Source: Dictyostelium discoideum (taxonomy: Eukaryota). Taken from it: a stretch of 64,000 nt of DNA. A program made the translations under genes and the position numbers. Positions within the stretch are counted from its first letter, which is position 1; the number at the start of each line of letters is the position of its first letter. Of the stretch, positions 14,564-46,829 are shown in pieces. The notes beneath the pieces were generated by a model. That model saw nothing but the letters and a program-made list of their open reading frames with translations, was not told the DNA's origin and did no database searches. The stretch spans positions 5,024,001 to 5,088,000 of the forward strand of contig CM000152.2 in NCBI GenBank assembly GCA_000004695.1. Reading direction: 5' to 3'.

Positions 14564-16197
14564 AAAATAAAACCAAGAACAAAATCTAAAATATTTTTTA
14601 ATTTTTAATTTTTAATTTTTAATTTTTTTAAAAAATAAAAAATAAATAAAATAAAGCATGGAAAAGTGGATCAGGATCAGTTTCATTACCATTATTAAAT
14701 GTTAGATCAGATTATATTTTTAGAATTTGGTCACCAGTTGTAAATTCATCATCACCACAATTAAATATTTTCCCAAATGTTACATTAACATTATTGGCAA
14801 CATCAACAGCAGTAACATTTAAGAATCCAAATGCACCAGATAAGTCATATTTAGCATTTACAAATAGTACAAGTGAAATGAGATTAATGTGGATTAGTGG
14901 TACTAATGATTCACCAATTTGTTATTATTCAAGTGATCCAAATTCATTAAGCAACTCTGTGACAGGTATAACAGTGACCTATGCAATTAGTGATATGTGT
15001 GCATCACCAGCCAACGAGACTAATTACTTTAGAGATCCAGGTTACATTCATGATGTTGTCATGACAGGATTATTACCAAATACAACCTACTATTATTATT
15101 TTGGTAGTGAAAATGATGGTATGTCAGCTATTCAATCATTTTTATCACAACCAGATAATAGCGACCCATCAAATTCCGAAGCATTTGTAATTGGTTTTGG
15201 TGACCTTGGTACCACATTTCCTTATACAGCATTGGTCGAAACTCAATATCCAGCAAGTGAAACAATTGCAGCAATTTCCCAAACCATTAGTGCACCATAT
15301 GGTTCATCACCATTTGTTAGAGCAATGGGTAAACAAAGTAATTCAATCGATAGATTAGATCCAAGTCAAACACCATTTTGGAGTGTTCATCACATTGGCG
15401 ATATCTCTTATGCTAGAGGTAAAGCATTCATTTGGGATTACTTTATGGATTCTATGCAACCAATCGTCTCAAAAGTACCATACATGGTATCGATTGGTAA
15501 TCATGAATACGATTTCATTGGTCAACCATTTGCACCATCTTGGTCAAACTATGGTAGTGATAGTGGTGGTGAATGTGGTGTACCATACAGTAAGCGTTTC
15601 CATATGACAGGTGCAGAGGATTCAACTCGTAACCTTTGGTTCTCCTATGAGAATGGACCAATTCATTTCACTGTAATGTCAGCTGAACATGATTTCCTTC
15701 CAGGTAGTCCACAATTTGAATGGTTAAATAATGATTTAGCATCAGTTGACCGTGAAAAAACTCCATGGGTAATCTTTAGTGGTCATCGTCCATTATATAC
15801 CTCTGCATTACCAGAGGATTCAATTGGTTCAATCACAGCTCTTCGTGAAGCTATTGAACCATTATTCCAAAAGTATGATGTTGATATGGCATTATGGGGT
15901 CATGTTCACATCTATGAACGTACTTGTGGTTTCATTGGTAATTTCACTTGTGCTGATAATGATAATGATGGTACCGTTCATGTTATCATTGGTATGGCTG
16001 GTAATACTTACTCTGTACCTTGGGAAGGCTCTGATATTAGCTCTGGTAATGGTCACGAAGATGAACCAGAATGGTCAATCTTTAGAAGTATCTCTTATGG
16101 TCATGTAAGATTCTATGCAAATACAACCTCACTTTATTTTGAATTTGTTGGTAATCATAGATCAATTGTTCATGACTCTTTTTGGTTAAATAAATAA
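14245..16197 (+). CDS. Purple acid phosphatase (metallophosphoesterase) with signal peptide, two exons, 14245..14488 and 14657..16197.
   Basis: Exon 1 reads MIKSFYCNVLIVLLIGLIGCIFASP…KLSQSS before a GTAAGT donor. A 168-nt intron ends in ATAAAG. Exon 2 carries all the purple acid phosphatase metal-ligand motifs: GFGDLG, IGDISYA, IGNHEYD, FSGHRP and WGHVHIYER. Total length is 1785 nt, or 594 aa. Confidence 0.85.
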
Positions 16198-16352: not shown

Positions 16353-16770
16353 TTATTTCTTTTTTGTTGAAGATGGTTTTAAAGAATGAGGACCAATACT
16401 GCTTTTTGGTTTAGTATTTGGTGTTGTTTTCTTTAATTTTTTAGCATTATCAGCATTTCTAATACTTTCTAATAAACTATTTCTACTAGATGATGATGGT
16501 GGTAATTTTGATGAAGAAGGTGGCGGAGGAGGTGGTGGCGCAGATTTTGGAGGAGGTGGAGGTGGTGGTGGCGTAAATGTTTGTAATATTGGTGTTTTTG
16601 GTGGTGATGATATTAAACTTGAATTTGGTGAAATTGTTGAAGTTGATGGTGATGATGGATTATTATTATTTGATAAATTAAAACTATTATTTAAAAGTGA
16701 AGTTGAAGAAGGTAATTTCATACTTTTTCTTTTATCGTCATTACTTGATATATTATTAAATGTATTGCTA

Positions 16771-16801
<31 letters not shown>

Positions 16802-17893
16802 TATTATTTGATGATGATGATGATAATTTACTTATATTACTTGAAGAGAATGAACCTGATAAAGATACTTTTGGTGATTCGAATTTATTTGAATTATCTT
16901 TAATAAAAGTTAATTGAGATTTCTTTAATTTACCATTTTGTAATGATTGTTGTTCAATTGTTGTTGTAACTTCAAACCAAGGATTCTTTACTAATTCCTC
17001 AAGGGTTGGAGTTTTTTCTGAAAAGATTTGTTGTAATAATAAAAATACTTTATCAGGGAATAATGGTATAAAACTATTGATATTTGAATGATCTCCTAAC
17101 GGTATACCAATGATCATTTCAAATAAACAATGACCAAAACAAATTACCTCTAAATTGTCTTTAAATGATTGTGGTAAACCAATACCATAAATATAATCAT
17201 TGAATAATGGTTTCATACCTAATAAACAATTTTCAATATCAACTAATTGACAAGTATCATTTGATTGATTAATTAAAATATTTGATAAATGTAAATGAGA
17301 GAATTGAATACCTTTACTCTTTAAATATAATAATGATTCCAATATTTGTTTACAATATTTTTGAATTGATTTAATTGGTAAAACAGATTGACTTTGTGAT
17401 GATGATGATGAAGATGAGGATGAAGATGACGATGATTTTGGTTGTTTGTAAATATATTTTGTATCATATGGTGATAATGGTTTTGATTTATATACTTGAT
17501 CACGAAGACTACCTTGTTTGAAGAATGTACGAATTACCAATATCTTATCATTGGCACCTGATACCTCAACGTTTATTGGTGTTAAAATATATGGATGTTT
17601 AAGTGAGAGTAGAGTTTTTTCAAACTTTCTCTTCTTCTTTTCATTTGACATTGACCATGGACATGATGATGGTGTTGGTGTAATTATTGATACTACGCAT
17701 TCTTCTCCACCACCCATTGAATTCTTTGCCATACAATATGATTTTCTTAATCCATGTTTAGTATGTCCAATATCCTGTAATGGTTTTGAATATTCAAATT
17801 GTGCTGTTGATCTTAATTGAAATTGTGCTACTAATGCATCAGTTTCTAAAATATATATATAAATAATTAAAAAAAAAAATATTAATATATTTT

Positions 17894-17928
<35 letters not shown>

Positions 17929-18502
17929 TATTTAAAAAAAAGATAATTACCAAAATATTGTTTCTTTTGTTCAAATGAATTATTACATGATCTGCATAAT
18001 CTTTGTTGACCTGTATATCCATATTCTATTGGTAAAATTGAATAAAATGATGAACATGAATCACAAAAAATTGAACCACATTTTCTACAGTGATGCTTAA
18101 AAAAAAAAAAAAAAAAAAAAAAAGGTAAGAATTAATTTTTTGTTTTATAAAAAAAAAAAAAAAAAACTCATCAGAAATTTCCGAAAAAAAAAAAAAAAAA
18201 AAAAAAAAAAGAATTAAAAACTTACTCTTCTTCTAATTAATGTGAAAGGTAATTGGCAATCATTACATTCCAAAGAACTTTGATCTGGTTTCCATTCAGC
18301 TTTACTTATGGCTGTTCCGCTGCTATTTGCTGTTGATGAATCCTATCGATTTTCATAAAAAAAATAAAATAAATAACAACAAAAAAATAGATTAGTTTAA
18401 AGTGACTAAAAAAAAAAAATAAAAAAAATAAAATTATAAATTTAAAATATAAAAACAAATAATAAAAACAGATAAATATATATAAATATTCTTACTTACC
18501 AT
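16353..18502 (-). CDS. FYVE zinc-finger + kinase-like (pseudokinase) + proline-rich + WH2-domain protein, Slob/PXK-like in architecture. Four exons on the minus strand: 18502..18500 (ATG only), 18342..18226, 18095..17951 and 17845..16353.
   Basis: Exon 0 is ATG followed directly by a GTAAGTAAG donor. Exon 1 reads DSSTANSSGTAISKAEWKPDQSSLECNDCQLPFTLIRRR and exon 2 reads HHCRKCGSIFCDSCSSF…RLCRSCNN, which together give a FYVE signature (W.PD…C..C…RRHHCR.CG…C..C…R.C..C). Exon 3 holds a kinase-like fold with degenerate catalytic motifs: HLHLSNILI replaces HRDLKPENIL and DIE replaces DFG. It ends with poly-Pro stretches and a WH2 motif, LLESIRNADNAKKLKK. Splice phases 0/0/1 are consistent, giving 585 aa. 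Confidence 0.75.
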
Positions 18503-19161
18503 TAAACTTATAAATTTTTTAAAAAATTAATAAAAAAAAAAAAAAAAATTTGTTTTTAATTCCGTCGCAAAAAATTAAAAAAAAAAAAAAAACAAATATT
18601 AAAATTGATATGTGTCGTTAATGTGTGTGTGTGGTATATCACTATATAAAGAAGTTTGGATGGAGAGAATAAAACTTAAAAATCAAAAATAAAAAATTTA
18701 AAATAAAAAAAAATTTTAAATGTTTGGTTTTTATTTTTTATTTTTTTAATTTTTTTTTTTTTTATTATCAATTATTCTGAAACTTTTTATCTCCCACAAA
18801 ATTTTTTCTCTATGTGTTTCTACTCTATTTTTATAAAAATAGAAAAAAATAAAAAAATAAAAATAAAACAAAAATAAATAAAACTTTTTTTTTTTTTTTT
18901 TTTTTTTTTATATTTTTTATTTTTTTGTTTTGTTTTTTTTTTAAAAAAAAAAAAAAATAAAATAAAAATATAAAACAAAATAAAAAAAAAAAATAAAAAT
19001 AAAAATTTCGGTTTGCCTGGTTGGGGACTGACTCTTCACACACAACCACACTTATTTTTGTATAGGGTCACCCCAATAAAAATTTTAATTTTCAAAAATG
19101 GATATTTGCATTTTATTTTATTTTTTTTTTTTTTTATTTTTTTATTTTTTTATTTTTTTTT

Positions 19162-20641
<1,480 letters not shown>

Positions 20642-46743: not shown

Positions 46744-46829
46744 GCCATAGTAGTCTAGTGGTAAGACATTTCTCTCGTATAAAATTATACAGCGAAGAAG
46801 GATCCCGTGTTCGATTCACGGCTTTGGCA
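46744..46829 (+). tRNA. tRNA gene with a putative 15-nt intron. The isotype is uncertain: the anticodon loop CUCGUA|intron|A would give CGU (Thr), but the assignment is tentative.
   Basis: The acceptor stem GCCATAG/CTTTGGC has 6 of 7 pairs. T8-A9 are present. The D-arm is GTCT-AGTGGTA-AGAC. The anticodon stem TTTCT/AGAAG has 4 Watson-Crick pairs and one GU pair. About 15 nt (taaaattatacagcg, containing the palindrome TATAAAATTATA) fall at the canonical 37/38 intron position. The variable loop is GATC, the T-arm is CCGTG-TTCGATT-CACGG, the discriminator is A, and a T6 Pol III terminator follows at 46832-46837. Confidence 0.75.

Follow-up and report, generated by a model that had tools for sequence, protein, structure and literature searches.

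Does the minus strand of this stretch of Dictyostelium discoideum DNA encode a single protein that joins a lipid-binding finger to a dead kinase and an actin-type tail and, if so, how is it related to the animal proteins PXK and Slob? A first-pass annotation of the window (the whole stretch of 64,000 nucleotides analysed here) had read such a protein from four exons, the first reduced to an ATG, and had likened it to metazoan PXK/Slob with FYVE substituted for PX. We find that the locus is almost certainly D. discoideum slob1 (protein DDB0229842, "SLOB1"), a four-exon gene of the minus strand that belongs to the Slob/PXK family. Below we examine its gene model, its three conserved modules and the origin of its N-terminal head.

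Gene model and the ATG-only first exon

The coding sequence occupies exactly positions 16353-18502 of the minus strand, from the A of the ATG down to the final nucleotide of the stop. Once spliced, it measures 1758 nt, stays in frame and encodes 585 amino acids, which bears out the four-exon model of the first reading. All introns are canonical (GT..AG) with a G+C content of 3-12%, and the three longer exons have 26-36% G+C. The gene is laid out as follows:

18500..18502, minus strand: exon 1, the ATG alone in coding terms, preceded by an unmapped 5′ UTR; donor site GTAAGTAAG
18343..18499, minus strand: intron 1, 157 nt, GT..AG, 11% G+C, phase 0
18226..18342, minus strand: exon 2, residues 2-40, first half of the FYVE finger (WKPD, CxxC, RRR)
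18096..18225, minus strand: intron 2, 130 nt, GT..AG, 12% G+C, splitting RRR|HHCR
17951..18095, minus strand: exon 3, residues 41-88 and one further nucleotide; rest of the FYVE finger (HHCRKCG...RLCRSC)
17846..17950, minus strand: intron 3, 105 nt, GT..AG, 3% G+C, phase 1
16353..17845, minus strand: exon 4, residues 89-585 and the stop codon; pseudokinase, Ser/Asn-rich linker, poly-Pro and WH2-type tail

A TAG stop directly upstream of the acceptor closes the frame of exon 2, and neither exon 2 nor exon 3 contains a Met codon, so the FYVE exons require an upstream ATG that is supplied by splicing. Comparison with other dictyostelids supports the ATG-only exon: the ATG|GT junction is conserved in location in D. 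citrinum (ATG|GTAAAT), D. purpureum (ATG|GTAGAT) and P. violaceum (ATG|GTATGT), and introns 2 and 3 have the same positions in these three species. Relative to D. citrinum, the interior of intron 1 is rich in indels and both of its splice sites are conserved. In addition, five dictyostelid protein models are collinear with the 585-residue model, and the gene order ADH - slob1 - purple acid phosphatase is common to D. discoideum and D. citrinum.

The expectation that automated ORF callers would miss the FYVE exons is correct for prokaryote-style ORF lists, as the mechanical list has only an ORF of 459 residues starting MAKNSM. It fails for eukaryotic gene callers, since the ATG-only exon is present in the models deposited for D. 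citrinum, D. purpureum and P. violaceum. One could take the mechanical list, and the fact that a 3-nt coding first exon is beyond the support of coding statistics, to mean that two genes lie here, one with the FYVE exons and one with the kinase-like ORF, or that the protein starts at Met127 (459 residues) and the ATG-only exon is a prediction artefact. We consider this highly improbable. The FYVE finger encoded by exons 2 and 3 is complete and scores highly; these exons follow the TAG, have no internal Met and are in frame with exon 4 across canonical introns. The layout of ATG|GT and acceptor persists in three species despite diverged intron interiors, and residues 90-126, which lie ahead of Met127, are conserved family-wide, including in PXK. 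Finally, the FYVE finger and the kinase-like domain are found together in single transcriptome-derived ORFs of other amoebae (Ceratiomyxa, Luapelamoeba, Pellita, Stenamoeba and Stygamoeba). A separate gene for the FYVE exons was therefore rejected.

Besides that of slob1, no ATG|GTA(A/T)G micro-exon with an AT-rich intron and an open frame behind it turned up when the window was scanned, and ATG-only micro-exons are therefore not frequent locally. Our literature search on introns placed directly after the ATG in Dictyostelium had a single match, a 1994 paper on a myosin light chain, and found no general statement.

Immediately upstream of the slob1 ATG, alignment with D. citrinum reveals conserved non-coding sequence:

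18555..18650, minus strand: conserved non-coding blocks CTTTATATAGTGATATACCACACACA..TAACGACACATATCA and TTTTTTGCGACGGAATTAAAA, a candidate promoter or 5′ UTR

Folding gave no RNA structure signal in these blocks (z-scores of -0.5 to -1.9), and an Rfam search near slob1 returned no matches.

The locus is the catalogued gene slob1

The first-pass annotation had suggested a comparison with annotated Dictyostelium slob-family genes. Over the 399 residues compared (1-399 of the 585-residue translation), our sequence is identical to SLOB1 (DDB0229842) as given in Table S2 of the Dictyostelium kinome study (Goldberg et al. 2006, PMC1420674); nothing differs over this stretch and both are the same gene. 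In that study, DDB0229842 is placed in group Other, family Slob, with the entries "slob kd" and "iq", and is predicted to be inactive; its motifs are given as VAIK=CVVS, HRD=FSHLHLSN and DFG=DIE. The protein in the 2006 table begins MDSST, indicating that the model with the ATG-only exon was already there. The same table holds a paralogue, SLOB2 (DDB0229843), also of the Slob family and with degenerate motifs of its own (MAMV / YFHLNSAN / DYE).

The gene is thus not new: the 2006 study already recorded its existence, exon structure, family and predicted inactivity, and as a finding slob1 matters little. Our literature search did not find a functional study of it.

The FYVE finger

At the N-terminus, the protein carries a zinc finger that spans intron 2:

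17970..18297, minus strand: FYVE zinc finger, residues 17-82 (Pfam PF01363)

The claim of a FYVE finger was checked with the Pfam model and stands: the match reaches 74.1 bits where 27.8 would suffice (E 9.8e-21) and covers profile positions 1-66 of 67. The motif residues are all there, namely WKPD at 18-21, RRRHHCR at 38-44, RLC and the eight Cys at 27/30/43/46/51/54/74/77. Six dictyostelid sequences agree in all eight Cys and in WxxD, RRHHCR and R(L)C. From these motif residues, the finger is predicted to bind PI3P and to direct slob1 to endosomes. Stable PI3P binding by single FYVE fingers often needs dimerisation.

Membership of the Slob/PXK family

The central part of the protein is a kinase-like domain with two recognisable degenerate motifs:

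16974..17816, minus strand: Slob/PXK-type kinase-like (pseudokinase) domain, residues ~99-379 (BLASTP to skate PXK, profile searches)
17280..17303, minus strand: catalytic-loop equivalent FSHLHLSN, residues 270-277 (HRD column of the kinome table, WNK1 alignment)
17229..17240, minus strand: DFG equivalent DIEN, residues 291-294 (kinome table, PXK and WNK1 alignments)

When the full-length protein was used as query, all matches listed were either orthologues from dictyostelids or unrelated proteins with FYVE fingers. The kinase-like domain alone was therefore used as query, because Ser/Asn/Pro low-complexity words swamped the full-length search. Its profile collected 83 relatives at E<1e-30. 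Matches named PXK or slowpoke-binding protein (NCBI, UniRef) had E-values of 1e-37 to 1e-83, depending on the profile. Matches named PXK, slowpoke-binding protein or "SLOB protein kinase" extended down to about E 1e-21, and the first other family, WNK, appeared at E 3e-12. By BLASTP, residues 99-379 align with skate PXK over 288 aa with 31% identity (E 6e-29), placing HLHLSN on HLHSSN and DIEN on DIEN. The proposed kinship with metazoan PXK/Slob therefore holds, with profile E-values of 1e-37 or better alongside the skate alignment. The consensus of the Slob/PXK family is HLHxGN ... DxEN, to be compared with FSHLHLSN, DIEN and CVVS in slob1.

PXK resembles slob1 in its homologous pseudokinase domain, in HLHxSN and DIEN, and in a C-terminal Pro-rich stretch followed by WH2. 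Both proteins follow a common logic: a head of a phosphoinositide-binding type, then the body of a dead kinase, then an actin-type tail. They differ in their heads, since that of PXK is a PX domain (Pfam E 1e-14 to 5e-18) while that of slob1 is FYVE; in their tails, since the WH2 of PXK is above the Pfam threshold and that of slob1 below it; and in the long Ser/Asn low-complexity inserts of slob1. A Pfam search relaxed to E 1 found no PX match in slob1, whose N-terminus is taken up by FYVE; slob1 would therefore work like PXK without being a PX-type member. PXK facilitates EGFR internalization in a PX-dependent manner, as summarised in PMC4288052.

Metazoan slowpoke-binding protein (Slob) belongs to the same kinase-like family (starfish, E 1.5e-37, or 2.7e-81 with a broader profile). 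Many metazoan Slob or "slowpoke-binding protein-like" members have a poly-Pro and WH2 tail like slob1, and for most entries the precomputed Pfam lists contain neither a PX nor a FYVE head. Binding of the Slowpoke channel by Slob is an animal-specific function. FYVE-headed relatives in other protists share the order FYVE - pseudokinase - (poly-Pro) - WH2-type with slob1, at 25-40% identity in the kinase-like domain. Some of them have no recognisable tail motif, and none has been characterised. Examples come from the following organisms:

FYVE-headed relatives, amoebae: Ceratiomyxa, Luapelamoeba, Pellita, Stenamoeba, Stygamoeba, Phalansterium, Pelomyxa, Cochliopodium
FYVE-headed relatives, others: the malawimonad Gefionella; the green algae Chloroparvula, Spirogloea, Mesotaenium

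The kinase-like domain is a predicted pseudokinase

Recognition of the domain as kinase-like by Pfam is marginal: PK_Tyr_Ser-Thr is passed with 25.1 bits (cut-off 23.1), whereas Pkinase, at 29.6 bits, stays under its cut-off of 31.7. This part of the first reading is thus upheld by one Pfam model and not by the other. By profile, the nearest solved kinases are WNK1, WNK3, STK10 and OSR1. An AlphaFold2 model built from six sequences was uninformative (mean pLDDT 43.7, pTM 0.35).

The motifs HLHLSN and DIE quoted in the first-pass annotation are present, within FSHLHLSN and DIEN respectively, and the claimed loss of the catalytic-loop Asp and of DFG is correct except that the Asp of DFG remains. 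Alignment with HRDLKCDN of WNK1 places His272 at the HRD Asp and His274 at the Lys, and the Asn is retained (Asn277). In DIEN, the Asp of DFG is kept (D291), with Ile in place of Phe and Glu in place of Gly. The β3 Lys of VAIK is replaced by Ser141 (CVVS) and the GxGxxG loop is absent. Hence, at the positions by which an active kinase is recognised (β3 Lys, HRD Asp, intact DFG), slob1 has CVVS, His272 and DIE. Among 25 aligned family members, the Glu and Asn of DIEN reach 90% conservation or more, with no variation at N205 of the alignment. We also considered that the loss of catalytic residues might be a Dictyostelium-specific decay; this was rejected, as the same substitutions occur family-wide.

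Judging from these residues, slob1 probably lacks kinase activity. Since the DFG Asp and the catalytic Asn are retained, nucleotide binding would still be possible. A different view is that slob1 is an atypical active kinase, with compensating residues as in WNK for the missing β3 Lys, and signals by phosphorylation. D291 and N277, retained here and conserved family-wide, would fit this view, as would the rank of WNK1 and WNK3 among the nearest solved kinases; moreover, the kinome study marks the inactivity as "qualified" and mentions that Slob-family members of other species are possibly active, citing Zeng et al. 2004 on Drosophila Slob (PMC1420674). Against it stand the replacement of the HRD Asp, the loop Lys and the VAIK Lys and the missing glycine-rich loop described above, the fixation of the substitutions family-wide from algae to animals, as is typical for pseudokinases, and the designation of the animal relatives as "kinase-like" by NCBI. 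We therefore regard an active slob1 as improbable and retain the predicted pseudokinase.

The proline tract and the WH2-type tail

Between the kinase-like domain and the tail lie a low-complexity Ser/Asn linker and two proline runs. The C-terminal features are:

16518..16571, minus strand: proline tract PPPPPPPPKSAPPPPPPP, residues 514-531
16410..16493, minus strand: WH2-type tail (SSSRNSLLESIRNADNAKKLKKTTP), residues 540-567

The poly-Pro tract is present as described in the first reading; P525-P531 are invariant among dictyostelids, and such a tract precedes the tail motif in most Slob/PXK family members. The terminal WH2 is less straightforward. The sequence LLESIRNADNAKKLKK that had been quoted for it is found at residues 546-561 and is, by position, the homologue of PXK/Slob tails with Pfam WH2 scores of 28-40 bits, but slob1 itself attains only 13 bits with this model (PF02205, E 0.084; cut-off 23.1). 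In other dictyostelids, where WH2 is detected at all, scores are 13-15 bits. LLESI is present in the slob1 tail, with AKK at the canonical LKK position and LKK three residues later. With Ala at the canonical Leu of LKK, or LKK shifted by three, the tail may bind actin weakly or no longer at all.

It is conceivable, then, that slob1 is a PI3P-membrane scaffold without an actin-binding tail, whose proline runs serve SH3, WW or EVH1 partners and whose WH2-like motif is vestigial or repurposed. The low Pfam scores across dictyostelids and the altered or displaced LKK are in line with this, and our literature search found no actin-binding data for dictyostelid Slob proteins, nor a usable statement on actin binding by the WH2 of PXK. 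Several observations nevertheless speak for a functional WH2-type tail. The motif R-x-x-L-L-x-S-I-R-N-x-x-N-x-K-x-L-K-K is invariant in six dictyostelids, within a fast-evolving low-complexity region, and its positional homologues in PXK and Slob pass the WH2 threshold. Among the best 99 relatives, 44 have a Pfam WH2 (best E 1e-11), C-terminal after poly-Pro. An HMM of the family tails gives 24.7-29.1 bits, far above the 10.9 bits at most of 2000 composition-matched shuffles, the training tails having been chosen by a regular expression that slob1 fits. We consider the loss of actin binding unlikely, without dismissing it, and the tail is predicted from its sequence to bind actin.

Which head is older

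The statement that FYVE was substituted for PX is right in that the heads of slob1 and PXK differ, but the direction of the exchange may be the reverse. Of the best 99 relatives, 15 have FYVE and 13 PX. Among the profile matches, the FYVE-headed ones come from at least ten genera of Amoebozoa, one malawimonad, one chlorophyte and two streptophyte algae, and the named PX-headed matches are all metazoan. Because FYVE heads span amoebozoan, malawimonad and green algal members and PX heads are seen in animals only, FYVE is possibly the older head. FYVE - pseudokinase - poly-Pro - WH2 would then be the ancestral eukaryotic form of Slob/PXK, and animals would have swapped FYVE for PX or lost the head in Slob, a scenario on which we are evenly divided. 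The distribution of FYVE may also result from several independent gains, the algal and protist FYVE-headed members may be contaminant transcripts in the data sets, and PX-headed forms may exist in unsampled non-animal lineages. If FYVE is indeed ancestral, one PI3P-binding module was exchanged for another on an otherwise conserved scaffold, and slob1 represents the original state and not a Dictyostelium oddity.

Possible role and significance

Altogether, the architecture suggests that slob1 may link PI3P membranes to actin or cargo sorting through a pseudokinase scaffold, a proposal to which we give about an even chance. The FYVE finger would dock slob1 on endosomes, macropinosomes or phagosomes whose membranes are rich in PI3P. 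The pseudokinase domain would act as a non-catalytic or weakly catalytic binding scaffold, and the poly-Pro and WH2 tail would recruit profilin-actin, G-actin or other proline-binding partners. In this way, slob1 could tie local actin dynamics or cargo sorting to membranes that carry PI3P, comparable to what has been proposed for animal PXK.

As a matter of method, a reading made from the sequence only has rebuilt a spliced Dictyostelium gene, including a first exon of 3 coding nucleotides. As a matter of biology, slob1 is an uncharacterised counterpart, open to genetic manipulation, of human PXK, which acts in endosomal trafficking and is associated with lupus. A slob1 knockout, in an organism that performs macropinocytosis and phagocytosis, could reveal the role of a pseudokinase and WH2 scaffold on PI3P membranes.

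Gene structure and identity of slob1

Reading window positions 18700-16200 in reverse complement and splicing the exons by hand, we obtained a four-exon gene.

Manually spliced exons of slob1 and flanking genes
18502-18500, minus: exon 1, ATG only, followed by GTAAGTAAG
18342-18226, minus: exon 2
18095-17951, minus: exon 3
17845-16353, minus: exon 4
14794-16197, plus: purple-acid-phosphatase-type metallophosphoesterase, convergent with slob1
19286-20032, minus: zinc alcohol dehydrogenase (ADH_N/ADH_zinc_N), upstream of slob1 on the same strand

The spliced CDS of 1758 nt encodes 585 aa, and every motif that the first-pass annotation had quoted was located in this translation at the place it had assigned. 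The three introns (157, 130 and 105 nt) are all GT..AG, and their G+C content is 11%, 12% and 3%, against 26-36% in the three longer exons, within an AT-rich window of amoebozoan composition. A TAG in the frame of exon 2 abuts its acceptor on the upstream side and neither exon 2 nor exon 3 codes for a Met; thus, translation of the FYVE-coding exons requires an ATG joined to them by splicing from upstream. A mechanical ORF list sees only a 459-aa ORF starting at Met127. That automatic gene finding would overlook the FYVE exons holds for prokaryote-style ORF finders, but not for the eukaryotic pipelines behind the dictyostelid orthologue records.

Over the 399 residues compared, the translation is identical to the SLOB1 entry (DDB0229842) in Table S2 of the 2006 Dictyostelium kinome (PMC1420674), whose sequence begins MDSSTANSSGTAISKAEWKPDQ; the DNA is thus that of D. 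discoideum and the gene slob1. The four-exon model with its ATG-only first exon, borne out here, is the one already adopted by 2006. The original observation is confirmed and its interpretation is essentially right but, the gene being the known slob1, the finding is an ordinary one. Our literature search found no functional study of slob1, and the sole other mention found concerns the paralogue slob2, a neighbour of vacB/vacC.

Conservation of the gene model in dictyostelids

Orthologue models run collinear with slob1 from the first Met through the tail in D. citrinum (574 aa), D. purpureum (546 aa), P. violaceum (542 aa) and Heterostelium album (543 aa).

Starts of slob1 orthologues, from locus sequences (slash, splice site)
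D. citrinum: ATG/GTAAAT ... AATAG/GATTCA
D. purpureum: ATG/GTAGAT ... TTTAG/GATCCA
P. violaceum: ATG/GTATGT ... TTTAG/GAGTTT
Heterostelium album (locus L004, 1501-1520): 15-nt first coding exon (MSQKI) instead of ATG only

In H. album the first intron is also much longer, the annotated gene spanning 2841 nt for 543 aa. Its 15-nt exon shows that a very short first exon is old, though not fixed in its exact length. The intron splitting RRR/HHCR has a position common to D. discoideum, D. citrinum, D. purpureum and P. violaceum. Intron 1 differs from that of D. citrinum by many indels in its interior, while the region of the ATG and donor, the acceptor and several blocks further upstream are conserved between the two species. 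Comparison with other dictyostelids thus supports the four-exon model. That the FYVE exons and the kinase-like ORF might be two genes is argued against by transcriptome-assembled ORFs from other amoebae, in which both domains lie in one reading frame.

Separately, in an 888-aa dictyostelid-like EukProt model (P0004), a complete slob1 orthologue follows about 300 N-terminal residues that include a RhoGAP domain (PF00620); the model reflects either a true fusion or two genes merged in prediction. Within slob1, a 13-Ser run in the kinase-like domain (17420-17460, residues about 228-240) and an Asn-rich run in the linker (16760-16830, residues about 428-452) are longer than in D. citrinum, and other species carry different inserts there; such trinucleotide-repeat expansions are typical of Dictyostelium and are tolerated in loops.

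ADH, slob1 and purple acid phosphatase follow one another in the same order in D. discoideum and D. citrinum; D. purpureum shares only ADH - slob1. The intergenic stretch from the class III ADH gene to the slob1 ATG (18555-19115) is an indel-rich AT desert except for four non-AT-rich blocks, which are conserved between D. discoideum and D. citrinum.

Upstream conserved blocks, from the D. citrinum alignment
about 18990-19115
about 18765-18845
about 18600-18650: CTTTATATAGTGATATACCACACACA..TAACGACACATATCA
about 18555-18575: TTTTTTGCGACGGAATTAAAA

None of the four matches Rfam, and folding them gives z-scores of no more than -0.5 to -1.9; a role as promoter or UTR elements is probable. Within the 64-kb window, the single RNA gene detected is a tRNA-Thr(CGU) (46744-46829, plus) which, at 86 nt, is longer than a standard tRNA and so probably contains an intron.

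FYVE finger and kinase-like domain

The proposed FYVE finger passes the Pfam search clearly (residues 17-82, E 9.8e-21, 74 bits, cut-off 27.8). It has the full set of eight Cys together with WKPD, RRRHHCR and RLC, each of them invariant across six dictyostelid sequences. The kinase-like domain exceeds the cut-off for PK_Tyr_Ser-Thr (25.1 against 23.1 bits) but not for Pkinase (29.6 against 31.7).

As low-complexity words swamped the full-length homologue query, we built a domain profile instead (residues 90-405, six dictyostelid sequences). Against 1.84 billion representatives, it retrieved 1274 relatives at E<=1e-3, 83 of them at E<=1e-30, with the whole domain matched in most. Among the best 99 of the 1274, 44 have a Pfam match to WH2 (best E 1e-11), 15 to FYVE and 13 to PX. 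The named PX-headed relatives are "PX domain-containing protein kinase-like protein" from seal, skates, sponge, flatworm and spiders, and a starfish "slowpoke-binding protein-like" has a WH2 tail and no head. A 25-sequence family profile retrieved 117 proteins, the named ones being PXK, slowpoke-binding protein and "SLOB protein kinase", with a clear gap before the first foreign kinase (WNK, E 3e-12). Skate PXK aligns pairwise with slob1 at 31% identity over 288 residues (E 6e-29), HLHSSN facing HLHLSN and DIEN facing DIEN. The kinship with metazoan PXK/Slob is thus well founded, and the SLOB1 entry of Table S2 likewise gives group Other, family Slob (PMC1420674).

The solved structures nearest to the family profile are WNK1, WNK3, STK10 and OSR1. 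Aligned on solved kinases, His272 occupies the HRD Asp, His274 the catalytic-loop Lys and Asn277 the conserved Asn, while Asp291 stands at the DFG Asp and Glu293 at the DFG Gly. The catalytic-loop Asp is therefore lost as proposed, but in DFG the Asp is kept and the Gly lost. This placement agrees with the Table S2 entry (VAIK=CVVS, HRD=FSHLHLSN, DFG=DIE; "slob kd", predicted activity "iq", "conserved divergent domain"). The PXK and solved-kinase alignments make the loss of catalytic residues an old, family-wide trait. In its main text, the kinome study places SLOB with the families that are conserved and divergent and predicted to be inactive, and adds, citing Zeng et al. 2004, that Slob is possibly active in other species (PMC1420674). 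That SLOB1 is an atypical active kinase seems to us quite improbable.

C-terminal tail and proposed function

On its own, the proposed WH2 motif stays below threshold in Pfam (residues 540-567, 13 bits, E 0.084, cut-off 23.1). Of the two motifs whose failure in domain searches the first-pass annotation had named as a refutation, FYVE thus scores and WH2 alone does not. Aligned C-terminal motifs from 24 members share a proline run, a short spacer and (G)R-x-A-L-L-x-S-I-x(5-8)-L-K-K. Pfam WH2 scores are 28-40 bits in PXK tails, 15-19 in other amoebozoan FYVE-headed members and 13-14 in dictyostelids where the motif is detected. The dictyostelid version reads SIRN(P/A)(D/N)N-x-K-x-LKK; the canonical Leu of LKK is Phe in most dictyostelids and Ala in D. 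discoideum, with a second LKK three residues later. An HMM of 83 non-dictyostelid tails, picked by a regular expression that slob1 fits as well, gave slob1 24.7-29.1 bits against at best 10.9 among 2000 composition-matched shuffles. From the shared layout and this score, we conclude that the slob1 tail descends from a WH2 motif.

The WH2 of PXK binds actin. In SLOB1, the FYVE finger would dock the protein on PI3P membranes, the kinase-like domain would serve as a scaffold, and the tail may recruit profilin-actin, G-actin or other proline-binding proteins. We give about an even chance to SLOB1 coupling PI3P to actin in this way; a scaffold acting independently of actin appears unlikely, though less so than an active kinase. 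Animal PXK is summarised as facilitating EGFR internalization after ligand binding in a PX-dependent manner (PMC4288052).

Head domain across the family

FYVE-headed Slob-family relatives are not confined to dictyostelids. They occur in other Amoebozoa (Ceratiomyxa, Luapelamoeba, Pellita, Stenamoeba, Stygamoeba, Phalansterium, Pelomyxa, Cochliopodium), in the malawimonad Gefionella and in green algae (Chloroparvula, Spirogloea, Mesotaenium), although some protist and algal cases may be transcriptome contamination. The precomputed Pfam lists give no head domain for oomycete and bolidophyte members. One Pelomyxa schiedti protein (P0092, KAH3759551.1) is named "PX domain-containing protein kinase-like protein" at NCBI; its RRHHCR-type motif, at residue 41, is a FYVE signature, and a PX motif is absent, so that the name evidently goes back to its kinase-like domain.

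Every named protein with a PX head comes from a metazoan. While the first-pass annotation had FYVE substituted for PX, this taxonomic spread suggests the reverse, with FYVE as the older head and PX replacing it in animals. slob1 itself was already known; the FYVE-headed relatives outside dictyostelids may go slightly beyond the existing record.
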